DNA of 46,444 nucleotides from a virus. Positions 948-46,444 of the stretch are shown here, one piece after another. A program made the position numbers and the translations under genes. The notes beneath the pieces were generated by a model, which was not told the DNA's origin, ran no database searches, and worked only from the letters and a program-made list of their open reading frames with translations. The stretch lies in IMG/VR virus record IMGVR_UViG_3300044780_000040. One strand, written 5' to 3'. Numbering within the stretch: position 1 is the stretch's first letter; the number at the start of each line of letters is the position of its first letter.

Positions 948-2207
948 ATGGCCCGACATTTCGCGAACTGGCTCAAAGCCTATATGAACTACACCAGAGA
1001 TTCAGAATCTCCCACCGGCTTTCACTTCTGGACCGGAGTTTCTGTCTTAGCTGGCGCTCTACGCCGCCGCGTCTGGATAGATATGAAGAAGTTTCAATGG
1101 ACCCCAAACTTCTATATCATTCTAGTCGGCCCGCCGGGCGTCGCCGCAAAATCTACCTCCATTTCGATGGGGACTGACCTTCTGGGTAAAGTGCCCGGAA
1201 TCCGTTTCGGGCCAGAAAGCATGACCTGGCAAAAACTAGCGAAAGGACTCGCAGATGCAATCGAATTCGTCGAATACACGAACCCGCTCGGGGGCAAAAG
1301 TAGAATCGCTATGTCCTGCCTTACTATCAACGTCAGTGAATTGGGCACCTTTATGCAAGCTGACAACGACCAACTCATGTCCTTTCTCATTCGTATGTGG
1401 GACGGCCAACGAGATAAATTCCGCCATGAGACGCTTACAGGCGGAACAGTTGAGATCGATAACCCTTGGCTTAATATTATCGGCGCAACTACTCCAAGTT
1501 GGCTTAAAGCTAACTTTCCCGAATCGATGGTCTCCGGAGGACTCACTTCCAGAATAGTCTTCGTATTCGGGAACAAAAAGCGCGGCCTGATCCCTTATCC
1601 GGATGAGGTAATTCCGGACGCCGAATATGACAAAATACAGAAAGAACTCATATCCGATCTTGCAGAGATCAGTAAGCTCGCTGGCCCTTATACGCTCAGT
1701 CCCTTCGCTCGCGAGTGGGGGCGCGCCTGGTACGTCGACCACAATAACCCTGACCTTCGACCCCCACATCTCGCCTCAGAGCGTTTTGAAGGTTATCTCG
1801 CACGGAAACAAACACACTTGCATAAGTTCGCCATTATCCTCGCGGCAGCTAAGCGTAACTCCCTTGTTATCGAAGAGGACGATCTTAAAGAATCAGACCA
1901 AATCATCTCCGACAACGAAAAAGACATGATCCAGGTCTTCGAATCTATTGGCGTCACGGACCAAAAGAATCACGTCAACGAAATCGTCTCAATTGTCCGA
2001 TTCAGCGGATTCATGACGTCAAAAGGTTTGTGGGCGCGAAGCATGAACCACATGACCCTCAAAGACTTCGAAGAAGCGGTCCGCGCTGCCATTCACGGCA
2101 GACTTCTCGAACTAACGACTATAAACGGTATCCAGGGGGTAGTAGTGCCGTCGGTCCATCCGGGTCAGAAGGGCCAGAGTCCCCCGAAGCCACAAGGATC
2201 GACATGA
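948..2207 (+). CDS. P-loop NTPase, DUF3987-like (candidate replicative helicase or primase-associated ATPase)
   Basis: 419-aa ORF with GGAG 8 nt upstream of the ATG. FHFWTGVSVLAGALRRRVWI...PNFYIILVGPPGVAAKSTS resembles the DUF3987 Walker A region, although the Walker A is deviant (GPPGVAAKS). No other helicase or primase was recognised in the genome. Confidence 0.5.
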   Translation: MARHFANWLKAYMNYTRDSESPTGFHFWTGVSVLAGALRRRVWIDMKKFQWTPNFYIILVGPPGVAAKSTSISMGTDLLGKVPGIRFGPESMTWQKLAKGLADAIEFVEYTNPLGGKSRIAMSCLTINVSELGTFMQADNDQLMSFLIRMWDGQRDKFRHETLTGGTVEIDNPWLNIIGATTPSWLKANFPESMVSGGLTSRIVFVFGNKKRGLIPYPDEVIPDAEYDKIQKELISDLAEISKLAGPYTLSPFAREWGRAWYVDHNNPDLRPPHLASERFEGYLARKQTHLHKFAIILAAAKRNSLVIEEDDLKESDQIISDNEKDMIQVFESIGVTDQKNHVNEIVSIVRFSGFMTSKGLWARSMNHMTLKDFEEAVRAAIHGRLLELTTINGIQGVVVPSVHPGQKGQSPPKPQGST

Positions 2208-2274
2208 CAATGACGGCTAAGCTCACGCCCACGAGCGTACCGCAAAAGACACCAAGCCAGAACTCTTCCATGAA

Positions 2275-2307
2275 AATAGGCCCCTTATCGCCTCGATAAT
2301 GTCCCCA
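2275..2307 (-). promoter_or_regulatory. Copy d of a 33-nt palindromic motif (minus strand TGGGGACATTATCGAGGCGATAAGGGGCCTATT)
   Basis: Shares TGG.G.CATTATC-N5-GAT.A-N4-CC.ATT with the copies at 17788-17820, 30079-30111 and 36733-36765. It lies between plus-strand genes. Confidence 0.6.
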
Positions 2308-2325: not shown

Positions 2326-2523
2326 ATGTTTAGAGAACCCATCATCACCATAAATGGCCAAGTACTCAACGACGGCCAATCAATGACCGTTCGCGTCGCG
2401 ATCACCAATTTTCTGATCGAACTTCGTGACGCTGAGAATTTTAGAAAACTAGGCCCAATCGCCCCTCGTTACTTGCTACGCTTGGAGGAAATCATTCGAA
2501 TGATCGGAGAGACCGATGGCTGA
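2326..2523 (+). CDS. Hypothetical protein (65 aa)
   Basis: ATG at 2326 is preceded by GGAGG (ggaggtctctccgcATG). The upstream part of the 74-aa track ORF overlaps motif copy d. Confidence 0.55.
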   Translation: MFREPIITINGQVLNDGQSMTVRVAITNFLIELRDAENFRKLGPIAPRYLLRLEEIIRMIGETDG

Positions 2524-2824
2524 CGAATCCGACGGCTGCCAACTCGAATCCTATATGTCTTACTGCAAGCTCTGCGGCACATGGCTCCATTGCTCTGAGA
2601 TCCAGAAAGGTGAACTCATTCGCCGCCCTATTGCCGACATCATTGAACCGGCTTCGCTCCCACCTGATTCGGTGCGAGACCCTCCGGATAATACTTCTGA
2701 AGATTTAGAGAAAGCGGAATATCGCTCTTCGCCAGAGGCAGCCCCGCCTCCTGCTTCGCCTTCACCTTCAGACGTTGTTGGACGGATTCTTTCAGTGCTT
2801 GGCTGGTCAAAGCCTTCATCCTAG
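2516..2824 (+). CDS. Hypothetical Cys-containing protein; its 3' half runs antisense to the end of the 1995-aa gene
   Basis: The ATG overlaps the previous stop (gATGGCTGA) and GGAGAG lies upstream. The N-terminus CQLESYMSYCKLCGTWLHC looks protein-like, while the C-terminal 60 aa are low complexity. Confidence 0.35.
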   Translation: MADESDGCQLESYMSYCKLCGTWLHCSEIQKGELIRRPIADIIEPASLPPDSVRDPPDNTSEDLEKAEYRSSPEAAPPPASPSPSDVVGRILSVLGWSKPSS

Positions 2825-5800
2825 CCTCGGGAGGCAACTCTTGATTGAAGCTCCGAATCGAACTCACAACCCGCGCCCGATCCTCGGGATTCTGACTCTT
2901 TACAGCATCTCCGAATTGTCTGAGCAAGATCCCCCGCCTCAGATCCCAATAGGTGCTGGCTTCTTGTTGGGCCTGAATGCTCTCCCATCGAGCGGTCAGA
3001 CGTCGTGGCTGATAACCTGCCGCGCGAGCGAGAATCTCTGCCATCTGCATTGTGTCGTGCGGGTCGAATCGCACAACCGTATTCCCGGCTTTGTTCACCT
3101 CCTCCCCGCGGGTCGCATAGCGGTATGCATGAGACATATTGCTCATAAACCGCGGCATAATTTGCTCCCATCGTTTCAACTCACTGAGATTCTGCGTGCT
3201 TGTGAGGAAATTGTACAAAGCGAAGAGATTCCCGAATCCTGCCCCGGCGGCTCTTTGCAACTGCTGGAATTCCGCCCCTTTCGGGTCTTTGACGGGTTGA
3301 AGAGGAGCAAATGGATCGAACCCCGTCACATCGCCCATGGAGATACTCTTGCTTCGATCCAGCGTTGGGAAGAATTTCGGAAGACCCACAAGACTCCCCA
3401 TCCCATTCATGACATGTGGAATCCCGAACCCATGAACACTCATCCCATGAAGCAACAGATCCGGACTAATATTTCCATGCGTGACATCTATCGCAAACTT
3501 GCGCGCTTCATCTTCGACATCCCAATCTTTTCCGAACAATTTCCACCCGAGCGCCTTGATGATCGAATTCACATTTTCAGTCCCCGGCAGTCCCATAAGA
3601 CCACCGAGCGCTCCCATGATTAACAGACTCCGGGCGCCCATCGCCTTATTATTCCACATATTGAATAGACTATTCTGTACGAACGACTTAAAAATGAACA
3701 AGGCACCTTTCCGTCCCCACATGAACTTCGGTCTCGAATAAGGAGCATAGACAAATTGAGTCTTTTCCACGGAGTCTTTAGCAGCGGTGAACGCGGCTGC
3801 CTCTTGGTGGCTCCAACCAGAATCTCTCAGGCGCTGGTATTGGAGCGGGTTGTCTCGAACAGTCTGCTGGACATATTTACCATTCGGGTCTCGCATCGCG
3901 AGGTCCCAAGCGGCTCTGAATGCGACACGCCGATTATACTGCTCGGTCATCTCGAACATCCAACTGGATGCCTCAGAGAACTTCTGCCAGAATTCCTCAC
4001 CTCTGTTTCCGAAGGCGCGGAGCAGATTTCGATCCTCGCTAACGGCTGCAAGTGTGTGAGCTTGCGTCTCACTGATAACGCCTTCTTTGACCGCCTCCGC
4101 CAGAGCCCGGAACTTCGAACCAGCGGGTCCGGGCGGCGCGTTCTTTGCGAGCTCCTGGATCGTTCCCTTCTTGTAGAAGTTGTTCAATTCGAGCCCCGCT
4201 CTGGAGATCGCAGCTACGCTTCTGAGATCCCCGAATTTACTTGCCAGATGCGGATAGGTCATAATTGGCGTCTGCGAAAGGTTTAATGTCGCTGAAGCCG
4301 GATTAAAACCGAGGAACCAATGGAACATCAATCCCCTCAGAGCCGCGAAATCCGGCTTCGGATCGACGAGCATATCGAGATGCTCAGTCATATAATTCGC
4401 GATCTTATCGCGCTTGACTGCGTCGTTCAGGTCAATAGATCCCTTCTTGACGTCCTTGATCTGATCCCTCAGAGCATCAACCCACTTGACCCGAGTGATG
4501 TGATTCGCGCCATGGAAGAAGAAGTGGGCGTACGCCCTTTGGAAATCGGTGCTATAGCCCGGAGTGACATCCTTCGCCTTGAACTGGTGACGGAAGCTTT
4601 GCGACGGCGCATAATCGAACCTGAGTTGATCGAGCATCCCTCTCTGTGTTCGACTCAACGACAATTTATCCGCGACCAAGTCGATGAAGCCCGGCGGCAT
4701 CCCCAAGAGTGGTGTCGCATCTTTTGGGACCTCTCCAGTTCTGACCCGATCGCCTGGGAGGAGGTCACTCGACTTCTCGAGTGCCGCCGCGATCTTCTTT
4801 TGCTGACGCAAAGAATCCGTCTGCTCGAAATGTCTCACATTTCCTGCATGATCGTAGACGGTTATCGTATACTTTCCAAAACGAGTGAGAGGAAAGAATG
4901 GCCTTTTCAACATATTGTCGATGCGTGTATTTGCGCTCTCGATCGCTTGAAGTTGAGCCACCGGATCTTTTATTCTGGCAGCGTCTTGCATCAAGAGATT
5001 ACGGTATTTCTCCAAGAAGCCATCAAAATCTGCTACGAGCCCCTCGAAGACCCTGAGACTTTGACCACTAAGTTTATGCTTCTCGGCGAGCTTTTGGAAC
5101 TCCGTTGCAGTCGGCCTTCGAATAATCCCATCATCAGTTAGCTTGAACATCCCATTCGCATAATCTTCGATGAACTTATTGAGACCGAAAAGCTGTTTGG
5201 GGTCTTTGACAAGTTTCCACTGCTTGAGGCGAGTATGAGCATCCCCCATAATGTTATTCTTCTCCAAATTCATAAGAGCGACAACTTCCTTATAGATTTG
5301 AAGGCCACGGATATGTTTATTCATATCAGCGATCTGCGGAAGACTAGTCATCCATTCCCAGAATCTATTCATCCGATCCGCGTGCGCCGCCATAGCATTG
5401 CCAGGCCCCTTAAGCTCTGGTGGAAGACTATCAATGATGTCCCTACCTCCGACAGTGAGCGCGGTGGGTGGTACAGAGCGCACCTCTGGGGTCCCATCCC
5501 TGTTCATGGCCTCAGCGTTGAGTCTCTTCCCATCCAATTCATGCTTGTCCTTGATGTCAGAAATGAACTCTGGAGTGTCTTTCATGAGCGAATCGAGCCA
5601 CTTCTGCATTACCGGGACCGCCTCCGCATTCCCCAACTTTCGACCGAGGAAGCGCTCGATTATATTTCGAATAGTCTGCCCCAATGACTTATAAAACTTA
5701 TCGACTCTCGACAATGGCTTATCCGACGTGGTCGCCCACTTTGCCACCTGTTCAGCGAACCATTCTTTGAAATGCAAAAGATATTCCCGAGATCCAGTCT

Positions 5801-8627
5801 GGAGATCCGAGAGCGGAATGTCGTTCTGCCTTTTCCCTCCCTCCCAATCTGGAAGATTCCGCGCCCCGGTCATTTCAGAGATCGCATTATCCCTCAATCT
5901 TCTCACGTCTCCGACCGTTTTTTGTGAAAGATTCACAGATTCCCGAAACTTCCTAAACTCATCAAAGATGAGCGTTCGAGTCGAATGGTCTAGATTCGCG
6001 AACTTATCCCAATAGATCAGATGTCCAATTTCATGCGCCGCGGTGGCATATAGATCTTCCGGAGTCCTGAGTCTATTGAGATTAATATTCACCACATATT
6101 CTCCATTGCGCAGTTCAGCTTTTCCGCGCCACCTCGCTTTATTCGGCTCCATCACAATATTCATCTTCCTGCTCAATTTGAGATCCTTAGCGATCTGAAC
6201 AGAAATCTTTGCGATCTTTTTCGCCGGCTCAATCAGCGCCTCAGGCGTCCCGATCGTCACAATATCATTGATGCGAACTTTTCCCTTTCCACTCGGCTCC
6301 GTTTCATAGAGTGGGAGGCCCATCCTGACTTTCGATCCAAAGGCTGGATTCAACTTCACGAAATAATTATCCTTCAATCTATTCGGATCGACTCCCATCT
6401 CTTGATGCAGACGCTCTCTCTGAACCCTGATCTGTGCCGGAATAGATGAATAATAATCCTCCGGCCGGACATCGAATCGAGTAGACTGGACATCCGCTCC
6501 GAGTTTATCTGCCCATTTCTTGAAAAGCCTCGAAACCTGTTTATCATAAAACTCCCTCGAACCCTGAAGCTGCTTCGCGGTCCCCAGCCGCAGACCGACC
6601 TGATCCCCTGTCGTCCAAGAGACACCATCATATCCCTCATCCGCCGCGAGTCTCAGAACCCGTTTAACCGCAAGCTCAGACCAATTCGACTTAAAGGGCA
6701 AATCCGGCGCCTTCCCCATCTGCTGGACAGCCTCATTGAATACATTCGAAGCATCCCTCCACCCTTGCCTCAACTCTTGAAGATAAGGATCTTCATGCGC
6801 CACGAGCCCTTGAGCTTCCACATACTGGCGCGCATTCTCATATTTGAACCTCGCCCGATCAACATTTCTTTGCGCATCTTCAACTGAGATCTCCGGTGCC
6901 TCTTTCGCACGATAGCCAGCTCTTCTCCCCATCTGGTGAATATCGCTCTGAATCTCCTCAACATGGAGCAACCTCTCACCATTCCGTCCCGTGCGGTCCG
7001 TTGCTCGAACGTGGGCTAAGACATTCGGATCTTGCCAATGGCTTCCAGTGAACACCGTCGGATCTTCTTGAAGGAAAAAGTTCCTCGCCTGTTTTCGCAT
7101 CCCTTCGCGTGAAAATTCTCCAGCCTGCTCCCACGGACCGAATTCTCTTGCATAATTATAATCCCAAGTGTCTTTCGCCCTCTCTTCAACTTTGAAGGGA
7201 TCGGGCTCATTCTTAATCGGAACCTTGAGCAAAAGCTCTCTATAATTCGAACGTTCGCCCGGAAGCACCTGATTTGCATATTCAGGATCGAAATCCAGCG
7301 GCGAAGTTCTCTCCTCCAGAATCAAACCATTCGACTCAATATGCGCAATCAAATCAGCTTTGTTGACCTTCCCCTCGACACTCGAAAGATATTGCGGAAG
7401 ATTTAGATCCAAAAGCTCCTCTTCCTTCACTCCGGGCGAGTTCTTTAACGTACCGATGACCTGCTCGACTGTTGCATTCTCTGGCACCTTTTCATGCACC
7501 GCCTTGAGCGTTGGAGAATAAAAAATCCGATCCTCTCTCGGATAAAGAACATCCTCCATCGCCGCCACTTCAGCGGGCGGAGTTTCTCCCAAACGAATAG
7601 CACCCGGTTCCGCACTCACATTCGGAACCTGGCTCTGAAAAGCCCTCTGAATCTCTTCCGGCGTCGCGGGCCTCGCACTCGGAAGCGCCTTCGCTCCAAT
7701 TCTTACAGAGCCCGCCGCAGCTTGATGTGCTCCCCACGCTCCCGCACCAACGCCGAGCCCGATAAAATAATCTTTCGCGAGATCTTCCCATCCAGGAACC
7801 TCGCCATGCGTGAGCGTCGTGACGGCGCCCTGCGCAGTTCCAAGACTCGGCAAAACAATTCCCATCTGTGTGAGTGCTTCGGCGACCGGATACTTCAATA
7901 ATTGAGCAACCTGCTCCGCTCCCTCTTGCTGCACCCGACCGAAAAGCGACGCCCCCGGAATAATTCCCATCGCCGTACCGAACGCCGTTGCAATCCCAGA
8001 ATCCACAATCGATCGAGTGAGCGCTTGATCTTCATTCAAACCTTTCGCTCTCGCCGCTTGATAACTTGGAACAATCGTGCCCAGCCCCGCTTCGCCTGCC
8101 ATCCCCGCGACAGCACCCGCTCCTCCGAACACCGAACCAGCGAGCATTGCCGCAGCCCCTGGCACCATTCCACCCATTCCGTGAGCAATATTCGCTCCGT
8201 ACCACTTCGGATCATTCCAGCCGTCAGTGATCTTTTCTCCCAGAAGCTTATTGATCTCATCTTGTGTTTCCGGATGTAGTAATTTTTCTTGATTCATTTC
8301 CTCCAATGTTTTTCCACCCCAATCCTTCGGTAAAATCGCCTGAGCGCCCCCAATATCTGCCAGAGTGCGATCGACGAGCCCCCTCTTGAAACTCGATACA
8401 ATCGCATCCCAGAAGCCGGGGGCCTCACTATTCGGTTTCGTAATTGGATCTTCAGTCGGACGGGGCTTTTCCACCGGAGCAGCAGGATTATCGAATGTCA
8501 GACCCTCCGGCAGCACCGCCTTCGGTGGCTCCGGCGTATCGAATGTCAATCCCTCTGGAAGCTCCGGATCAGTCTGCGGAGGCGTAAAGGTTAACCCTTC
8601 CGGCAACTCATTGGGCATTGGGAACAT
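2640..8627 (-). CDS. Giant polyvalent virion/ejection-type protein (1995 aa) with a zincin HExxH motif
   Basis: Uninterrupted ORF. It has a 3x LPEGLTF N-terminal repeat and a Gly/Ala-rich hydrophobic segment. HEIGH is encoded at 6021-6035 and FPLTRFGKY (PLxRFG-type signature) at 4875-4892. It is the last gene of the structural operon, after three low-complexity proteins. Confidence 0.7.
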   Translation of the reverse strand: MFPMPNELPEGLTFTPPQTDPELPEGLTFDTPEPPKAVLPEGLTFDNPAAPVEKPRPTEDPITKPNSEAPGFWDAIVSSFKRGLVDRTLADIGGAQAILPKDWGGKTLEEMNQEKLLHPETQDEINKLLGEKITDGWNDPKWYGANIAHGMGGMVPGAAAMLAGSVFGGAGAVAGMAGEAGLGTIVPSYQAARAKGLNEDQALTRSIVDSGIATAFGTAMGIIPGASLFGRVQQEGAEQVAQLLKYPVAEALTQMGIVLPSLGTAQGAVTTLTHGEVPGWEDLAKDYFIGLGVGAGAWGAHQAAAGSVRIGAKALPSARPATPEEIQRAFQSQVPNVSAEPGAIRLGETPPAEVAAMEDVLYPREDRIFYSPTLKAVHEKVPENATVEQVIGTLKNSPGVKEEELLDLNLPQYLSSVEGKVNKADLIAHIESNGLILEERTSPLDFDPEYANQVLPGERSNYRELLLKVPIKNEPDPFKVEERAKDTWDYNYAREFGPWEQAGEFSREGMRKQARNFFLQEDPTVFTGSHWQDPNVLAHVRATDRTGRNGERLLHVEEIQSDIHQMGRRAGYRAKEAPEISVEDAQRNVDRARFKYENARQYVEAQGLVAHEDPYLQELRQGWRDASNVFNEAVQQMGKAPDLPFKSNWSELAVKRVLRLAADEGYDGVSWTTGDQVGLRLGTAKQLQGSREFYDKQVSRLFKKWADKLGADVQSTRFDVRPEDYYSSIPAQIRVQRERLHQEMGVDPNRLKDNYFVKLNPAFGSKVRMGLPLYETEPSGKGKVRINDIVTIGTPEALIEPAKKIAKISVQIAKDLKLSRKMNIVMEPNKARWRGKAELRNGEYVVNINLNRLRTPEDLYATAAHEIGHLIYWDKFANLDHSTRTLIFDEFRKFRESVNLSQKTVGDVRRLRDNAISEMTGARNLPDWEGGKRQNDIPLSDLQTGSREYLLHFKEWFAEQVAKWATTSDKPLSRVDKFYKSLGQTIRNIIERFLGRKLGNAEAVPVMQKWLDSLMKDTPEFISDIKDKHELDGKRLNAEAMNRDGTPEVRSVPPTALTVGGRDIIDSLPPELKGPGNAMAAHADRMNRFWEWMTSLPQIADMNKHIRGLQIYKEVVALMNLEKNNIMGDAHTRLKQWKLVKDPKQLFGLNKFIEDYANGMFKLTDDGIIRRPTATEFQKLAEKHKLSGQSLRVFEGLVADFDGFLEKYRNLLMQDAARIKDPVAQLQAIESANTRIDNMLKRPFFPLTRFGKYTITVYDHAGNVRHFEQTDSLRQQKKIAAALEKSSDLLPGDRVRTGEVPKDATPLLGMPPGFIDLVADKLSLSRTQRGMLDQLRFDYAPSQSFRHQFKAKDVTPGYSTDFQRAYAHFFFHGANHITRVKWVDALRDQIKDVKKGSIDLNDAVKRDKIANYMTEHLDMLVDPKPDFAALRGLMFHWFLGFNPASATLNLSQTPIMTYPHLASKFGDLRSVAAISRAGLELNNFYKKGTIQELAKNAPPGPAGSKFRALAEAVKEGVISETQAHTLAAVSEDRNLLRAFGNRGEEFWQKFSEASSWMFEMTEQYNRRVAFRAAWDLAMRDPNGKYVQQTVRDNPLQYQRLRDSGWSHQEAAAFTAAKDSVEKTQFVYAPYSRPKFMWGRKGALFIFKSFVQNSLFNMWNNKAMGARSLLIMGALGGLMGLPGTENVNSIIKALGWKLFGKDWDVEDEARKFAIDVTHGNISPDLLLHGMSVHGFGIPHVMNGMGSLVGLPKFFPTLDRSKSISMGDVTGFDPFAPLQPVKDPKGAEFQQLQRAAGAGFGNLFALYNFLTSTQNLSELKRWEQIMPRFMSNMSHAYRYATRGEEVNKAGNTVVRFDPHDTMQMAEILARAAGYQPRRLTARWESIQAQQEASTYWDLRRGILLRQFGDAVKSQNPEDRARVVSSIRSFNQELPPEARMKALTSQALKESVQQRLKVKAKQEAGLPLAKSDIPLSLNLQKYYPEGLAPNQVGAKPVQ

Positions 8628-17608: not shown

Positions 17609-17770
17609 CTACCCCTTCACTCTTTTCAGGTGGGGATTTCTTTTCTTCGCAGCAGCGCTCGCTCTTCGCGTCCCCGCTGCGAGCATCGCACCGGCGCGCT
17701 CTTCTGAAACTCCCTGCTTCCGAGCGATGCTTTTTTGTACATTCTTGAAACCCGGATGTTTCTTCGCCAT
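17609..17770 (-). CDS. Small basic protein (53 aa; below the ORF-track cutoff)
   Basis: My translation is MAKKHPGFKNVQKSIARKQGVSEERAGAMLAAGTRRASAAAKKRNPHLKRVKG. TGGAGG lies 5 nt upstream of the ATG. Confidence 0.55.
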   Translation of the reverse strand: MAKKHPGFKNVQKSIARKQGVSEERAGAMLAAGTRRASAAAKKRNPHLKRVKG

Positions 17771-17787: not shown

Positions 17788-17820
17788 AATGGGGACATCA
17801 TCGACCTGATAATGTCCCCA
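17788..17820 (-). promoter_or_regulatory. Copy a of the 33-nt palindromic motif (minus strand TGGGGACATTATCAGGTCGATGATGTCCCCATT); it can also fold as an 8-bp-stem hairpin
   Basis: GGGGACAT (17791-17798) pairs with ATGTCCCC (17812-17819). The motif lies between the stop at 17828 and the ATG at 17770. Confidence 0.6.
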
Positions 17821-17827
17821 ATTACAC

Positions 17828-18223
17828 CTAACCTCCACCTCCCGGCTGCGGCTTCCCTCCAGATCCAGGGAAATATCCCCATCCATAGACCGGATGCCAA
17901 CCCCACCCTCCTTGAGGCGGCGGCGGCTTCGGAGTCGTCGGATCAGTCGGAATATCCGGCGGAGACTCTGGCGGAATAATCGGACCTCCACCCGCGACCG
18001 GCGGATAACCCGGCTTATCAGGAAGATCCATTCCGGGCGGTCCCCAAATCGGGAACGCCGGAACACCCGGAGGAGTGTCAGGCTGCGCCGGAGGAAGTAC
18101 CGGCCCGCCATCGACCATAAGACCAGCAATCCACGCATTCCCTACAATCGTGACCGGCTGCGGTGGGTCCTTCTTATTTTTCGGATAACTGACTCCACTG
18201 ATTACAACAGGAACATACGCCAT
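17828..18223 (-). CDS. Hypothetical Pro/Gly/Trp-rich protein (131 aa)
   Basis: The ATG at 18223 is preceded by AAAGGAGAGG. The sequence is PP-rich and ends GGWGWHPVYGWGYFPGSGGKPQPGGGG. Confidence 0.55.
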   Translation of the reverse strand: MAYVPVVISGVSYPKNKKDPPQPVTIVGNAWIAGLMVDGGPVLPPAQPDTPPGVPAFPIWGPPGMDLPDKPGYPPVAGGGPIIPPESPPDIPTDPTTPKPPPPQGGWGWHPVYGWGYFPGSGGKPQPGGGG

Positions 18224-28621: not shown

Positions 28622-28754
28622 ACGGGAATGATCACTCCAATTGGCGGGGGTGGGGGTGGAAGGCGAAAATGGGGCTATTTAACTCTCAATTCTATTCGCG
28701 CACCGGAAATGGCGTTCTCGGGGGGCGAGGCGGCCTGAGAGGGGGCCGCCCCCC

Positions 28755-29039: not shown

Positions 29040-29678
29040 ATGTCTGATACAACCACGAATACCGAAAAGAAGCGCGAAGCCATTGCATCCCGCGAATGGA
29101 TCGATGAAAACGGCAAGGCCCTCAATTCCGGCGAGGAAAAACAGGCCGTCGGCTTCCGCTACATTCACCTCCCGAGCGCCAAAAAGGCCGACCCGAATTA
29201 CAATCCGGAGTCGAGCGGCCAACCGCCCGCAGGCACCTTCTTTGACTACGTTTGCGGCGAAGCCGGTCAACCCGGAACCATGCTGGCCATTTTTGGCGGT
29301 CTGACTCTCGCAGGGAACGTTGTCAACTCCGCAGTCAACGGCCCAAAGGGCGACCCCACGATCAACCCCATTTCACTCGTCGAAGCGCGATTCAAGGAGA
29401 TCGACGACGGCGTTTGGGCCGATCGCGCGGGTGGAGTCGGTGGAGTTCGATACGACAAGGACAAGCTTGCGGCCGCAATCGCCGCAGCCAAGGGCGAAAA
29501 AGACGTCTCGCCCTACTTGGCGAAGATGGATAATAAGGTCGATCCAAAGACCGGCGCAGTCGTTGCCAGCGATACGAAGGGAGCAATCTCTTACGGCGCC
29601 TTCGCGCTGCGGAATCCCGCGGTTAAGGGCGAATACGACAAACTGACCGGAGGCGGAGTGCAGCTCACTTCCCTCTGA
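29040..29678 (+). CDS. Hypothetical protein (212 aa), first plus-strand gene
   Basis: AAAGGAA lies upstream of the ATG. The composition looks globular. No family was recognised. Confidence 0.7.
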   Translation: MSDTTTNTEKKREAIASREWIDENGKALNSGEEKQAVGFRYIHLPSAKKADPNYNPESSGQPPAGTFFDYVCGEAGQPGTMLAIFGGLTLAGNVVNSAVNGPKGDPTINPISLVEARFKEIDDGVWADRAGGVGGVRYDKDKLAAAIAAAKGEKDVSPYLAKMDNKVDPKTGAVVASDTKGAISYGAFALRNPAVKGEYDKLTGGGVQLTSL

Positions 29679-29723
29679 TCCCCCCAGATGGCGCCGCGCA
29701 AATGCGGCGCCAAGGAGGCCCAA

Positions 29724-29849
29724 ATGTACCACGACGACCCATCGCGCGGCGGGTGGCCGAGCGTACTGTTGCAAATCGGCATCTTCGTTGCACTTCTGCT
29801 GCTCTTTTCGGACGAACTCCCAAATTTCCTCGGGAGATTCGCCCAATAG
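29724..29849 (+). CDS. Small membrane peptide (41 aa; below the ORF-track cutoff)
   Basis: AAGGAGG lies 5 nt upstream. My translation is MYHDDPSRGGWPSVLLQIGIFVALLLLFSDELPNFLGRFAQ, with one TM segment. The stop abuts the terminator. Confidence 0.5.
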   Translation: MYHDDPSRGGWPSVLLQIGIFVALLLLFSDELPNFLGRFAQ

Positions 29850-29872
29850 CGCCCTCCGGGGCGCTTTTTTTT
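29848..29872 (+). terminator. Rho-independent terminator
   Basis: agcgccc-tccg-gggcgct stem-loop followed by T8. Confidence 0.85.
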
Positions 29873-29959
29873 GTCCAGATTCGCGCTCACACCGACAGGT
29901 TCGCGCTCCAGACACCGACAGGCGCACTTCGCGAGTTCAGATCCCCCGCCAGCTCAGCT

Positions 29960-30014
29960 GGCCCTCGAGTGACCCTCAAACCACCCTCACAGGACCCTGA
30001 CATGACCCTTACTG
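29960..30014 (+). repeat. Five 11-bp-phased iterons with core (G/C)(G/A)CCCT
   Basis: ggccctcgagt / gaccctcaaac / caccctcacag / gaccctgacat / gacccttactg, starting at 29960, 29971, 29982, 29993 and 30004. Confidence 0.8.
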
Positions 30015-30078
30015 CCTTCATGGTTGAGTCACCGACTGATGCACTTATTCGCATCCCTCTAGACCTCGAGACCACCAA

Positions 30079-30111
30079 AATAGGCACATTATCAGCCTGA
30101 TAATGGCACCA
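30079..30111 (-). promoter_or_regulatory. Copy b of the 33-nt palindromic motif (minus strand TGGTGCCATTATCAGGCTGATAATGTGCCTATT)
   Basis: Contains the 9-bp perfect palindrome cattatcag-c-ctgataatg (30087-30105). It lies in non-coding DNA between the iteron arrays. Confidence 0.6.
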
Positions 30112-30140
30112 TTTTACATCCATCCCCTCCCTCCTTCTTA

Positions 30141-30207
30141 CTCTTATATACTTTTTTATTTTTTTTTTTTTAATATATAGAATAGAATATATATAGATGA
30201 ATATCAG
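30141..30207. other. AT-rich tract (candidate DNA-unwinding element)
   Basis: ctcttatatacttttttatttttttttttttaatatatagaatagaatatatatagatgaatat, including a T13 run. It is preceded by the polypyrimidine stretch catcccctccctccttctta. Confidence 0.6.
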
Positions 30208-30244
30208 AGACCCCCCGGCTGACTCCCCCTAAGATGAGGCAGTC

Positions 30245-30299
30245 AGGGTTAAGTTAAGGTCTTGTGAGGGTCTTGGCAGGGTCTTTTTAGGGTCCCACG
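30245..30299 (-). repeat. Five 11-bp-phased iterons, the reverse complement of the left array (AGGGTC core)
   Basis: agggtt at 30245, aaggtc at 30256, and agggtc at 30267, 30278 and 30289. Confidence 0.8.
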
Positions 30300-30320
30300 A
30301 CTAAACGCAACGAGTTAGGG

Positions 30321-30377
30321 ATGCATGTGCATGCATGTTGCAATGCACCAATGCAAATCTGCATACCTGCCATGCAT
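30321..30377. promoter_or_regulatory. Cluster of seven TGCA / ATGCA(T) cores upstream of the first early gene
   Basis: atgcatgtgcatgcatgttgcaatgcaccaatgcaaatctgcatacctgccatgcat. Confidence 0.4.
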
Positions 30378-36213: not shown

Positions 36214-36245
36214 CTGGGAGGAGAGCCCCTCCTCCCAGCCTTTTC
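36214..36245 (+). terminator. Rho-independent terminator
   Basis: Perfect 10-bp stem ctgggaggag / ctcctcccag with a 5-nt loop, followed by ccTTTTct. Confidence 0.7.
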
Positions 36246-36260
36246 TATCTGGAGAGTAAG

Positions 36261-36686
36261 ATGACCCGCTCGAAGCATATGCCTCTTAGCTCCTTCGGTG
36301 CAGAACTGCAAGAAGTAATGCGTCAAGGCGCGAATAAAGAAATCCGTATCACCTTCGACACCGAAGCACTAGCGACCAGATTCTTGCACCGGATCAACAC
36401 CCTTCGCGTCGCAATGAAGCGCGAAAAGCATCCCGACTGGGAACAGCTATACCGCTGTAGCGCCCGAAAAGACGAGCAAGATCCCAAAATTCTCATAGTC
36501 GCCCCCCGCGACTCCGAATTCCTACCAGCACTCAAATCCGCCGGGATCGCAGTCGTTGAACCAGAAATCAGTGAATACAAAGTTCCAACCCCTGCTCCCG
36601 ATTCGGGTGGGGTCGAAGACTTTCTTGGAGAGCTTCGTGACGTCACAACTGTACCGAAAAAGACCCCCGGTCTCGACAAGCTCTGA
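36261..36686 (+). CDS. Hypothetical protein (141 aa); ends TPGLDKL
   Basis: GGAGAG lies upstream of the ATG. This is the first gene after the terminator. Confidence 0.6.
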   Translation: MTRSKHMPLSSFGAELQEVMRQGANKEIRITFDTEALATRFLHRINTLRVAMKREKHPDWEQLYRCSARKDEQDPKILIVAPRDSEFLPALKSAGIAVVEPEISEYKVPTPAPDSGGVEDFLGELRDVTTVPKKTPGLDKL

Positions 36687-36732
36687 AATACTTATCGAGA
36701 CCTCGAATTTTCATGTTGATCGTGGCTTAATT

Positions 36733-36765
36733 TGGGGCCATTATCAGTGCGATAACAGGCCCATT
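36733..36765 (+). promoter_or_regulatory. Copy c of the 33-nt palindromic motif (TGGGGCCATTATCAGTGCGATAACAGGCCCATT), 19 nt upstream of the RHH-like gene
   Basis: Intergenic between 36686 and 36785. TTGATC lies 17 nt upstream of CATTAT, so a sigma70-type promoter could overlap the motif. Confidence 0.6.
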
Positions 36766-36784: not shown

Positions 36785-36991
36785 ATGAGCCGCCAGAAGA
36801 CCCCCGAACCTTACGTTCAACAGAAGGTATCTTTTCCCGCAACCCTCTTAGCTCGCTTCTCACGTTTCCATTGGGACCCGGTCTTGAATAAGATGGAGTA
36901 CGGTGCAATTTCGCGCGTTATGACCGACTTGTTGACCGACTACGTAAACAGACGTGAGAATCCAGAACCCGAAAAGGAGAAGACCACTTGA
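36785..36991 (+). CDS. Putative ribbon-helix-helix (Arc/CopG-like) DNA-binding protein
   Basis: 68 aa. QQKVSFPATLLARFSRF is a beta-strand-like segment, followed by two predicted helices. Confidence 0.35.
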   Translation: MSRQKTPEPYVQQKVSFPATLLARFSRFHWDPVLNKMEYGAISRVMTDLLTDYVNRRENPEPEKEKTT

Positions 36992-44004: not shown

Positions 44005-44169
44005 ATGCAACTCGTAAAACCAAACGGTGACGTCACGGGCGTCAGGTTCGATGCACACGACGTTGTGAACCTCACAGGCACAGCTTGCAACTTCATGCTT
44101 GGTTACAGTCGAGCTCAAGTCCTCGCTTATTGTAAAGACCGAGGATGGAAAGTGTATTTAACATCATGA
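44005..44169 (+). CDS. Hypothetical small protein (54 aa; below the ORF-track cutoff)
   Basis: AGGAAG lies upstream. My translation is MQLVKPNGDVTGVRFDAHDVVNLTGTACNFMLGYSRAQVLAYCKDRGWKVYLTS. The stop overlaps the ATG at 44166 (ATGA). Confidence 0.45.
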   Translation: MQLVKPNGDVTGVRFDAHDVVNLTGTACNFMLGYSRAQVLAYCKDRGWKVYLTS

Positions 44170-45974
44170 ACGACTATCGCCCCACGACTCCCTCTGCAAT
44201 CGACGACTTATGGTACGGCACCTCAGGCCCTCGAGACGCCCGCATAGTCGTCGTCGCCGAGTCGTGGGGCGCGGCCGAAGCCGCAATGAAAAGACCCCTC
44301 GTCGGAGAATCAGGAAAAGAATTCAACCGAATGTTGAGTGAAGCTGGGCTTTCCCGCGAGTCCATCTTCTGCACGAACTGTTTCGCAGCCCAACCGCCAA
44401 GCAATGAAGTTTGGCGATTTTTCCATGCAAAAGATAGCGGGGAATCGAAATGTCGCGGTCTCCAACCGACTCAATGGGCGACACACGAGCTAGGTCGCTT
44501 ATACCGACAACTCGAAGAAATCCGACCGACCCTTGTCATTGCCGCTGGGAACTATGCCCTCTGGGCATTGACGGACGGCTTAGTATCATTCTCATCCGAG
44601 CCGACGGGGTCCGGTGCAACAGTCCTTGTACCTTCAGGGATCATGTCTTGGCGCGGCTCAATGCTGGAAGCCTCGGGGCTCGCGGCCTTGCCAAATATAA
44701 AAATCCTCCCAATCATCCACCCCGCGGCGATCCTTCGGGCGTGGTATCTGAGAGCGGTGACGATTCATGACCTTAGCTACAGAGTTCCACTTGCGCTTAA
44801 TTCTGACTGGCGCCCATATCCGGGTCCAGAGATCATTCATCGACCATCATTTGCCGACGCCGAAAGAGTGCTGGGAAATTGGATCATACACGCAGCCGCT
44901 GGTTCTCTGCTCCGTCTGTCGAACGACATTGAAACATATCGTGGACTTATCACCTGCCTCTCGTTCGCGGATGGCCCATACGACACTGGATCGACAGCTC
45001 TCGTCATCCCGCTTGTGCGCCCCTCTGGTTCAGGCGGTGCTTTCGAAAATTATTGGACCCCAGAACAAGAACTCCGAATAACTAAGCTTCTCCGAATTTT
45101 ATGGACATATCCGAATGTGCGAATCGAAGGCCAAAACTACAACTACGACACCCAATACATCGAACGAGACTACGGAGTCCGACCCAATCTCGATTTCGAT
45201 ACCATGCTCGCTCATCATCTACTTTGGCCGGGAACCCCAAAAGGGCTCGACTACCTTTCTTCCCTGTACAATAAGTATTACTGGTATTGGAAGGACGACA
45301 ATAAAGAATGGGACAGCAAAGTCGGTGGGTGGGACAGCCATCTCCGGTATAACGCTGAGGACTCCCTTCGGACTTTTGAGTGCGCCACCAGCCTCCGTGC
45401 CCAAATCTCTACTCAGAACTTTGAAGAACTATGGGCCTGGGAAAAAGCCAAAAATGAGATGGCTCTCGAAATGATGCGAAGGGGAATCCTAATCGATCGT
45501 TCTAAACGCGCCGAAATGGGCTTCCATTTGGCATTTGAGAAGGAGAAGATCAATGTCTGGCTGAAAAAAATCATCCCGCAAGAATTCTTAACCCTATCTG
45601 AATTTTCCCCCAAAACTTCAAAAAAATTTTGGTGGGAATCGGGGAAACAACAGAAGGATTTGTTTTACCGGATTCTCGGCTTCCCGCGGAAATTGAGCCG
45701 AAAAACCGGAAACGAAACCCTCGATGCAGAAGCTATCGAACGCTTAAAGAAAGATGTCCCTTGGGCGGCCCGCCTTTGGTCTGCAATAGAGACCCAGCGG
45801 TCAATTGGCGTCTTTCACAACACGTTCATTAGCGCGGAACTCGAGCCCAATGGTCGTATGAAGTGCAGCTTCAATACGGCGGGGACGGAAACATTCCGCT
45901 GGTCCTCTTCCGCAAACGCCTTTTGGCGAGGGACCAATTTGCAGAACATCCCGAAAGGAGAAGAACCAGACTAG
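44166..45974 (+). CDS. Family A DNA polymerase, N-terminal piece: UDG-family-4-like domain, 3'-5' exonuclease, thumb and first fingers element
   Basis: UDG-like: VVVAESWGAAEA...PLVGESGKEF...CTNCFAAQPP...IIHPAAILR. Exo I NDIET, Exo II NYNYD, Exo III YNAED. It ends ...TFRWSSSANAFWRGTNLQNIPKGEEPD*. The track start is 44145, but the ATG at 44166 is coupled to the upstream stop. Confidence 0.85.
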   Translation: MNDYRPTTPSAIDDLWYGTSGPRDARIVVVAESWGAAEAAMKRPLVGESGKEFNRMLSEAGLSRESIFCTNCFAAQPPSNEVWRFFHAKDSGESKCRGLQPTQWATHELGRLYRQLEEIRPTLVIAAGNYALWALTDGLVSFSSEPTGSGATVLVPSGIMSWRGSMLEASGLAALPNIKILPIIHPAAILRAWYLRAVTIHDLSYRVPLALNSDWRPYPGPEIIHRPSFADAERVLGNWIIHAAAGSLLRLSNDIETYRGLITCLSFADGPYDTGSTALVIPLVRPSGSGGAFENYWTPEQELRITKLLRILWTYPNVRIEGQNYNYDTQYIERDYGVRPNLDFDTMLAHHLLWPGTPKGLDYLSSLYNKYYWYWKDDNKEWDSKVGGWDSHLRYNAEDSLRTFECATSLRAQISTQNFEELWAWEKAKNEMALEMMRRGILIDRSKRAEMGFHLAFEKEKINVWLKKIIPQEFLTLSEFSPKTSKKFWWESGKQQKDLFYRILGFPRKLSRKTGNETLDAEAIERLKKDVPWAARLWSAIETQRSIGVFHNTFISAELEPNGRMKCSFNTAGTETFRWSSSANAFWRGTNLQNIPKGEEPD

Positions 45975-45991: not shown

Positions 45992-46444
45992 TTGACATTC
46001 AGCGACAAAGTTCGAGAAAAACTCGGCCCCACGCCCGAATTACGCGTGTTTAAAAAAGACTCTCGGGCAAGACTACCGATAAGAGCGACAGAAAGCTCTG
46101 TTGGACTCGACGTTTTTGCCTTTCTGCTAACTGAATCCGGAAGGCCAACGACTCGAGCGATTCACCAAAAGAGCGTCACACCAGTCCCAACTGGACTGGT
46201 AATCCAACCTCCCAGCGGGTACTACATTCAATGCATGAGTCGATCCGGCCTTGCAAAGAATGGTGTATTCGTCGCCAACGCTCCCGGAATAGTTGATCCA
46301 GACTATTCAGGGGAGCTGATCATTTTACTCTACAATGGGAGCTACGAAACCCACTATGTCGCTCATGAACATCGAATCGCACAACTCATCCTCACTCCAA
46401 TCTGGCCCTGCGCAATTGGAGAACTTGACATCCTTCCGCCCCCG
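45992..46444 (+). CDS. dut: dUTPase (runs off the window end; continues at 128-169 through the circular junction; 164 aa in total)
   Basis: AGGAGG lies 5 nt upstream of the TTG at 45992. Motifs seen: GLDVFA, SRSGLA, GIVDPDYSGELIILL and (after wrap) RGDRGFGSTG. The gene is not in the ORF track because there is no stop inside the window. Confidence 0.85.
   Translation, partial: MTFSDKVREKLGPTPELRVFKKDSRARLPIRATESSVGLDVFAFLLTESGRPTTRAIHQKSVTPVPTGLVIQPPSGYYIQCMSRSGLAKNGVFVANAPGIVDPDYSGELIILLYNGSYETHYVAHEHRIAQLILTPIWPCAIGELDILPPP
46318..46444. repeat. Second copy of the 127-bp terminal overlap
   Basis: Identical to 1-127. Confidence 0.95.

Follow-up and report, generated by a model that had tools for sequence, protein, structure and literature searches.

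A conserved intergenic stem-loop element at four module boundaries in a clade of uncultured podovirus-like phages

Introduction

Why would a phage keep one palindromic 33-nt sequence at four separate intergenic places, and does this sequence act as DNA, as RNA or as both? The question arises from the 46,444-nt DNA stretch of IMG/VR virus record IMGVR_UViG_3300044780_000040 (hereafter the window, meaning the whole stretch at its full length). The original prediction, made from the letters of this stretch, had listed four copies (a to d) of a dyad-symmetric motif and proposed that they form an operator set, a phage-specific promoter or a binding site for a ParB-domain protein.

The window is a complete circular phage genome. 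Nucleotides 1-127 recur unchanged at 46318-46444. This end repeat comes from assembly overlap, the genome being circular or terminally redundant, and 46,317 bp is thus the true length. The genes specify a portal, a terminase, tail proteins and an SU10-type capsid protein, together with a 1995-aa virion protein (2640-8627, minus strand) that combines a PLxRFG ('tail-700') domain (residues 1243-1580) with a lysozyme-like segment (residues ~535-675) and is probably an ejected internal protein. The replication arm on the other strand specifies a PD-(D/E)XK nuclease, an AAA ATPase, a ParB_N-methylase fusion, a family A polymerase and a DUF3987 protein. The polymerase is split over two ORFs (window 44145-45974 and 18-929), of which the first holds a UDG, a 3'-5' exonuclease and the N-terminal polymerase part and the second the C-terminal polymerase part; in the related loci L213 and L216-L218, a dUTPase/dCTP-deaminase-like or HNH gene sits between the two.

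Late genes run leftward from ~28.6 kb to 2.6 kb, and early followed by replication genes run rightward from ~30.3 kb, across the end of the window and on to 2.2 kb. With this layout, the four copies fall on four module boundaries. No RNA polymerase, sigma factor or known regulator or appropriator was detected among the phage proteins, and signals for the host RNA polymerase are therefore to be expected. Lysogeny genes were likewise absent from this phage, and Pfam, PHROGs and NCBIfam searches with the conserved small proteins returned no DNA-binding, RNA-binding, sigma or antiterminator domains.

Results

A rare motif with four intergenic copies

All four 33-nt copies were recovered at the predicted positions and on the predicted strands, and each of them is indeed intergenic. 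A whole-genome search with the pattern TGGKGNCATTATCN5GATRA, allowing up to three mismatches, yielded eight strand-hits at four sites only (expected 0.24; 0 in 100 shuffles), each site being matched on both strands because the copies are palindromic. With a position weight matrix derived from 26 copies, the four sites scored 38.8-47.5, compared to 6.3 for the next-best site of the genome and a maximum of 16.9 across 100 shuffled genomes, and the motif constitutes the top repeat family within the window. The palindromic character, by contrast, was borne out in full for copy a alone (perfect, with 13-bp arms), while copies b, c and d are imperfect and fold as RNA at -8.9 to -13.2 kcal/mol. The 'WGHYQxDxxPI' peptide shared by translations across the copies is a trivial consequence of the DNA repeat itself.

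Scans of the window for Rfam families and tRNAs were negative, and generic promoter and terminator consensus scans did not discriminate. Likeness to sigma54, ECF-sigma, DnaA-box, IHF and Fur-box sites was assessed by eye and discarded, as key positions were not conserved or the spacing was wrong.

Distribution among relatives

Thousands of relatives of the capsid protein are found in metagenomes, most of them from soil. The motif is conserved at the same four places in a sub-clade with at least 77% capsid identity, made up of uncultured ~47-kb podovirus-like phages. For instance, relative R1 (contig 3300031946_000009; loci L126, L038 and L118) carries one copy each of the a-, b-, c- and d-type, and further copies occur in R3 (L039 and L210), in L213-L218, in L119-L123 and in many short contigs. 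Megablast against GenBank phages gave no match: deposited phages include no close relative, and the motif is absent from them. In 596 Gb of bacterial and archaeal genomes, the strict pattern had a single match; the contig concerned has no relation to the phage and the match is thus a chance one, which means that the motif is not a host repeat. Another 36 single exact-motif matches elsewhere in IMG/VR, none of them related to this phage by tblastn, were set aside as chance hits. A generic hairpin scan of motif-less relatives for a common hairpin family was too noisy to conclude.

Small-ORF insertions or deletions lie directly beside copies c, d and a in different relatives. Besides, locus L041 holds a fifth copy (TGGGGATATTATCGTGGCGATAAAGGACCCAAA, 2529-2561) within the head/packaging module; neither side of it has a T-tail. 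Taken together, the motif is a real, conserved regulatory element and a useful annotation, yet the kind of system is not new: the palindrome family looks like a fairly ordinary type of phage control element.

Stem positions covary

Base pairing was evaluated over 26 distinct copies, with 500 shuffles and slid alignments as controls. Standard pairs occupied 84% of the stem cells, and stem covariation exceeded 500 of 500 shuffles as well as all slid controls. The pair 6-26, which is not conserved, is C-G in 11 copies and A-U in nine, and pair 7-25 alternates between C-G, G-C, U-G and U-A. Compensation can even be specific to a copy within one genome, as in R3, where copy a reads GGGGAG...CTCCCC and copy d GGGGAT...GTCCCC. 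A dimeric protein reading half-sites would give no reason for complementarity at positions that it does not recognise, and these patterns hence indicate that a hairpin, be it of RNA or of extruded DNA, is under selection.

Copies a and d resemble terminators of the late operon

Copy a (17788-17820, minus strand) forms a perfect hairpin with a 13-bp stem and a 5-nt loop between the capsid/decoration genes and the next late genes. As had been noted, it lies 17 nt before the ATG of the next late gene; more precisely, it sits between a stop codon at 17828 and an ATG at 17770, 7 nt past the upstream stop and oriented with the late operon. Its RNA fold reaches -21.5 kcal/mol (z -5.6). The 14 distinct syntenic homologues carry compensatory changes and fold at about -12 to -22 kcal/mol, 13 of them at -16 or stronger. 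The sense strand is favoured: in 11 of the 14 it folds more stably than the antisense strand, and its mismatches are G·U in 11 cases versus A·C in two. On the 3' side, ATTT, TTTT or CTTT is followed by a Shine-Dalgarno sequence and an ATG 16-25 nt on; the tail averages 3.9 T in 8 nt versus 2.6 on the other strand, in short tracts of 3-5 T. In relatives with 46-71% capsid identity, site a is occupied by strong GC hairpins of unrelated sequence with T-runs, and a post-capsid terminator thus appears to be a feature of the wider family. At this site in L046 (7837-7867; 66% capsid identity) lies the hairpin TGGGGCGAAATAG-TGT-AGCTATCTCGCCCCA, a possible evolutionary intermediate in which the outer TGGGGCG/CGCCCCA stem is retained and the inner stem differs.

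Copy d (2275-2307, minus strand), an imperfect hairpin with a TATTTT tail, marks the end of the late operon and adjoins the stop of the convergent DUF3987 primase/helicase-like gene. Its proposed location at the distal end of the replication arm was confirmed: it is flanked by the DUF3987 stop at 2207 on one side and by a 65-aa ORF at 2327 and the end of the giant virion gene at 2640 on the other. The d-type copies of R1, R3, L211 and L213 occupy the same junction, where the giant gene and DUF3987 converge. In R1 and L213 they are at both stops or overlap them, and in R3 and L211 they lie ~200 nt beyond the stop of the giant gene; d copies away from this stop are 194-333 nt past it. All four share the orientation of the late operon and have TTTT on their 3' side. 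With 4.5 T on the sense versus 1.5 on the antisense strand, this is the strongest directional T-tail of the four sites. The b- and d-type folds are weak (-5 to -13 kcal/mol). A promoter or operator would have no obvious role here, since the junction is convergent. As sense-strand hairpins with directional T-tails, copies a and d thus have the look of intrinsic terminators that serve the late operon.

Two further ORFs border copy d. The 65-aa ORF (2327-2523, plus strand), preceded by a GGAGG Shine-Dalgarno sequence, is inserted beside the copy and missing from R1, and a possible 50-aa hydrophobic ORF (MEEFWLGVFCGTLVGVSLAVIVMS...; 2119-2271, minus strand) starts 3 nt past the copy and overlaps the 3' end of the DUF3987 gene. 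R2 shows a different gene order at this junction.

Copy c overlaps a putative sigma70-type promoter

Copy c (36733-36765, plus strand) lies, as stated earlier, 19 nt before the RHH-like gene, between the stop of g141 at 36686 and the ATG at 36785. Its left arm includes the hexamer CATTAT (36739-36744), a putative sigma70-type -10 element, which is separated by 17 nt from a -35 box, TTGATC (36716-36721, plus strand). Scoring as -35-like any TTGNNN with at least 4 of 6 matches to TTGACA, we found such a hexamer 17-18 nt 5' of the left-arm hexamer in 9 of 11 c-type copies, versus 0 of 26 copies of the a-, b- and d-type on either strand. The -35 variants (TTGACC, TTGATC, TTGATG, TTGTGA and TTGCCC) are embedded in intergenic DNA that has otherwise diverged, and the left-arm hexamers read CATTAT, CATAAT, GATAAT, TATTAT, CATGAT or CATGGT. 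L122 has TTGACA 18 nt from a right-arm CATAAT, and L214 TTGCGA at 19 nt. The proposed promoter function therefore survives at copy c, as a putative promoter of ordinary sigma70 type, and falls away at the other three sites, which lack a -35. By its elements, the promoter overlapped by copy c would drive the RHH-like/PD-(D/E)XK/replication operon. Transcription from it would be expected to begin in the loop or the right arm, so that the copy-c hairpin would be missing from its transcripts.

The c-type hairpins are of intermediate strength (-13 to -17 kcal/mol) and have neither a directional T-tail nor a sense G·U bias (G·U:A·C, 1:5). They are always found 25-55 nt past the g141 stop, and what follows is variable: the RHH-like gene begins 14-45 nt or 200-1240 nt away, with zero to two ORFs inserted. 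The suggestion that the RHH-like gene is autoregulated through the adjoining copy is weakened on these grounds, as it is the g141 3' end and the promoter that the motif accompanies rather than the RHH-like gene itself, from which it lies 14-1240 nt away in relatives. A strong canonical terminator (CTGGGAGGAG...CTCCTCCCAG followed by CCTTTTCT; 36214-36248, plus strand) lies 22 nt before the g141 start, so that g141 is bracketed by this terminator and copy c in the window genome; the terminator is not conserved in L213.

Two clade-restricted proteins next to copy c

Both genes flanking copy c encode proteins that might act on the motif. The 141-aa product of g141 (36261-36686, plus strand), directly upstream of copy c, has 38 homologues only, all within the motif clade, and belongs to no Pfam or PHROG family; a fold search with its AF2 model (pLDDT 71) gave no match. 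The 68-aa RHH-like protein (36785-36991, plus strand) is the product of the first conserved gene of the operon downstream of the copy-c promoter. It is present in all relatives at 57-85% identity (45 homologues, clade-restricted) and consists of a nearly invariant N-terminal QQKVSxPATL followed by two predicted helices. The RHH assignment found no support in Pfam (E<=5, 24 members) or in a PDB sequence search, an hhalign comparison with Arc returned a probability of 0.1%, and Foldseek retrieved nothing with a poor model (pLDDT 62). A resemblance to RHH proteins in secondary structure is possible, and the 68-aa protein is a candidate DNA binder. L216, which has the most divergent motif core, is also the only genome with a change (S16N) at a predicted DNA-facing strand position of this protein, a single observation.

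Copy b lies beside an AT-rich, putative control region

Copy b (30079-30111, minus strand) is a weak, near-symmetric palindrome with A/T flanks on both sides and of ambiguous orientation. It had been placed in an ori-like region, and it does lie in non-coding DNA (29679-30334) beside an AT-rich block. Its position is conserved in R1, L120 and L213-L216, and its neighbours in all relatives are a block of very high AT content, a polypurine/polypyrimidine tract and short repeats that resemble iterons. Most b-type copies fold at only -8 to -10 kcal/mol, and there is no T-tail asymmetry. In L213, copy b sits between the AT-rich block and the first late gene, the block being directly upstream of that gene. 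In the window, a 212-aa protein gene and its terminator separate the AT-rich control block from the first late gene. The L213 homologue of the 212-aa gene lies across copy b and the AT-rich block, and the cassette has thus moved. With low confidence, copy b might be an insulating or promoter-proximal hairpin.

The 212-aa gene itself (29040-29678, plus strand) is conserved, runs against the late operon and is followed by a strong canonical terminator (29848-29875). The control region (29880-29935 and 30140-30300) further contains two copies of ACACCGACAGG, a run of 13 T in the very AT-rich block and three to four copies of AGGGTCTT; relatives have different short iterons here (L118, 3720-3810; L120, 1-60 and 340-400).

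About 45 nt before the first late gene, we noticed a solitary half-motif (TTAAATAGCCCCATTTT in late sense; 28666-28682, minus strand) that has no inverted partner. It is conserved in the window, L214, L213 and L216, and the GNCCCC-ATTT part is thus kept as sequence where a hairpin is impossible. The segment 28666-28770, in which this half-motif (AAAATGGGGCTATTTAA on the plus strand) is accompanied by a GCGCGA box, likewise conserved, and by a hairpin of very high GC content (GGGGGGCG...CGCCCCCC), could be a late promoter/leader or a packaging signal.

Sequence is conserved beyond pairing and shared between sites

Pairing does not account for all of the conservation. Copies b and d keep their sequence despite poor pairing, the left arm matches the consensus at 290 of 312 positions versus 252 of 312 for the right arm, and in L216 the core TTATC...GATAA is replaced by TGATG...CATCA in both b and c. 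Along with the half-motif, these features indicate sequence-specific recognition beyond the hairpin. Furthermore, stems at different sites are more alike within a genome (74.6% identity) than between genomes (66.3%; p~0.0008), and this cross-site identity within genomes is at least equal to that of the same site across genomes (71.4%). Loop sequences are sometimes common to sites as well, such as GGTCT in an a-type (L136) and a d-type (L123) copy. The copies thus evolve in concert, by gene conversion between sites, through a sequence-specific factor, or both.

Discussion

We favour, at a probability of roughly 0.5, the reading that the four copies are clade-specific palindromic stem-loop cassettes at transcription-module boundaries and act mainly via a hairpin in the transcript. 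Copy c would then separate the early from the replication genes and copy a the head from the tail genes, while copy d would mark the end of the late and of the replication genes and copy b the border between the control region and the late operon. Copies a and d might serve as intrinsic (factor-independent) terminators or attenuators and provide 3'-end hairpins for the leftward late operon. At copy c, a hairpin following g141 would be merged with a host-type sigma70 promoter, with the -35 just upstream and the -10 supplied by the left arm; new transcripts would begin inside the hairpin and so would not be terminated there. Copy b, in turn, may be an insulating hairpin, or a promoter-proximal one, next to the AT-rich control region. 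Shared descent and inter-site copying (concerted evolution) could maintain the common sequence, and a common factor acting in trans may add to this. From sequence features we infer termination, the activity of the promoter and what copy b does.

The strongest rival reading treats the copies as protein binding sites in double-stranded DNA. In such an operator set, a dimeric or tetrameric phage regulator, either the 68-aa RHH-like protein or g141, would bind the four palindromes, repress the replication promoter at copy c, act on the control region at copy b, and at copies a and d form a roadblock (stoperator-like) or modulate termination; this reading is compatible with terminators at these two sites. 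Several observations fit such a regulator: conserved arms around a free 5-nt spacer, sequence that persists in the poorly paired copies b and d, a left arm conserved better than the right, and the solitary conserved half-site. Moreover, the palindrome of copy c is centred at about -3 of the sigma70-type promoter, L216 combines a variant core common to b and c with S16N in its RHH-like protein, the copies evolve in concert within genomes, and both candidate protein families are confined to the clade of the motif. Covariation at non-conserved positions and copy-specific compensation are, however, unexpected for half-site recognition, the sense-strand G·U bias at a and the directional T-tails at a and d point to RNA, and copy d lies between two convergent stop codons. 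No candidate showed a DNA-binding domain in Pfam, PHROGs, NCBIfam or fold searches, and gene conversion explains the concerted evolution equally well. Thus, what stands of the predicted operator is the extra sequence conservation, the overlap with the promoter core at copy c and the concerted copies, against the covariation, the G·U bias, the T-tails and the position of copy d, and as a full account of the element we regard it as clearly less likely than the transcript hairpin. A combination in which one small clade-specific regulator (the 68-aa protein or g141) shuts promoter c as a DNA site and, with the site as RNA or DNA, also modulates late-operon termination or read-through at a, b and d strikes us as rather doubtful.

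The promoter option of the original prediction can also be spelled out for all sites, as four -35-less middle or late promoters served by the host RNA polymerase together with a phage appropriator or sigma-like factor; these would comprise a -10-like hexamer (CATTAT or GATAAT) and then GNCCCC-A, with the solitary half-motif as a fifth member. In keeping with this, -10-like hexamers are present in both arms, at a and c the motif ends 14-25 nt before a Shine-Dalgarno sequence and ATG, the first late gene is preceded by the half-motif TAAATAGCCCCATTTT, and L122 pairs its TTGACA with the right-arm hexamer. On the other hand, several a-types have G or C in place of the essential A at the second position of this right-arm hexamer (GGTGAT, GGTAAT, GCCGAT), copy d faces the 3' end of a convergent gene with no downstream ORF in relatives, the -35 is missing at a, b and d, and neither a sigma factor nor an RNA polymerase or known appropriator was found among the phage proteins. 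All of this makes phage-specific promoters at four sites quite unlikely. Far less probable still are a hairpin promoter for a virion RNA polymerase (N4- or crAss-like), a host REP/USS-like repeat and a ParB/parS-type site, which are largely refuted by the evidence already in hand. They would be in line with the hairpin potential, the 1995-aa virion protein and the presence of a ParB_N domain. Yet the giant protein contains the PLxRFG domain and the lysozyme-like segment and matches no solved RNA polymerase, the 13-bp stem and 5-nt loop differ from the 5-7 bp stem and 3-nt loop of N4-type promoters, a host repeat is contradicted by the one chance match in 596 Gb, and parS has no supporting evidence. 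A ParB reads a palindrome of ~16 bp through a DNA-binding HTH, and this phage has only a ParB_N domain, fused to an N6/N4 methylase, which gives no ground for assigning a specificity.

If stem-loop cassettes with a transcript hairpin are what the copies represent, they provide a first transcription map (four modules, their boundaries and one promoter) for an abundant clade of uncultured soil phages whose early proteins are nearly all unannotatable. One hairpin sequence would double as terminator and promoter core. There are signs that it was copied from site to site and that genes were inserted next to the copies, so that the cassettes may be joints for module exchange. Should a cognate binding protein exist, it would form a compact new regulator-site pair with the motif. 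And if one protein did act at both levels, the timing of the entire lytic programme, in a podovirus dependent on host RNA polymerase, would rest with one protein and its site, amounting to a 'stoperator-terminator' hybrid in a lytic phage.

Parts of this arrangement are familiar from other systems. With operators of RHH proteins of the Arc/Mnt/CopG type, the element shares its dyad, core boxes (TTATC and GATAA) whose centres are 10 bp apart, the overlap, at copy c, with the core of a promoter, and the gene for a small basic protein just downstream; it differs in that the 68-aa protein has no RHH support and three of the four sites are not at promoters. Cluster A mycobacteriophages, which are temperate and have a known repressor, contain ~20-35 dispersed stoperators, each an asymmetric site of 13-14 bp. 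Like these sites, the motif is short, conserved and located in small intergenic gaps including gene ends, where a bound copy could block elongation; unlike these, it comprises four symmetric, hairpin-forming sites of 31-33 bp in a phage in which no repressor or lysogeny genes were found. T7-like podoviruses have an intrinsic terminator (T-phi) after the major capsid gene. Copy a similarly places a strong hairpin right after the capsid module, which would allow for high capsid and lower downstream expression, and a syntenic hairpin recurs across the wider family. Its T-run is short (3-5 T), though, and, in contrast to ordinary terminators, the same sequence is reused at three other sites.

The closest analogue would be found in T4-like phages, in the promoter-terminator cassettes termed PeSLs (promoter-early stem-loops). 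In these conserved repeats between genes, a polyG/polyC stem-loop that terminates transcription is joined to a sigma70-like promoter and a Shine-Dalgarno sequence with ATG, and they recombine with each other and flank insertions or deletions (PMC2839356, PMC4122927). The present cassette, as known from sequence alone, belongs to a podovirus-like phage unrelated to T4-like phages, is found in four copies at module boundaries rather than in dozens in hyperplastic regions, has a recognisable -35 only at copy c, and carries its -10 inside the left arm of the hairpin instead of downstream of the stem-loop. Copy c unites all parts of a PeSL, copy a has the stem-loop plus Shine-Dalgarno sequence and ATG with no -35, and copies b and d correspond to the stem-loop only. 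As with PeSLs, it is a repeated intergenic stem-loop that would terminate or attenuate upstream transcription, is combined at copy c with a sigma70-like promoter and a Shine-Dalgarno sequence/start codon, sits beside insertion and deletion spots and appears to recombine between sites.
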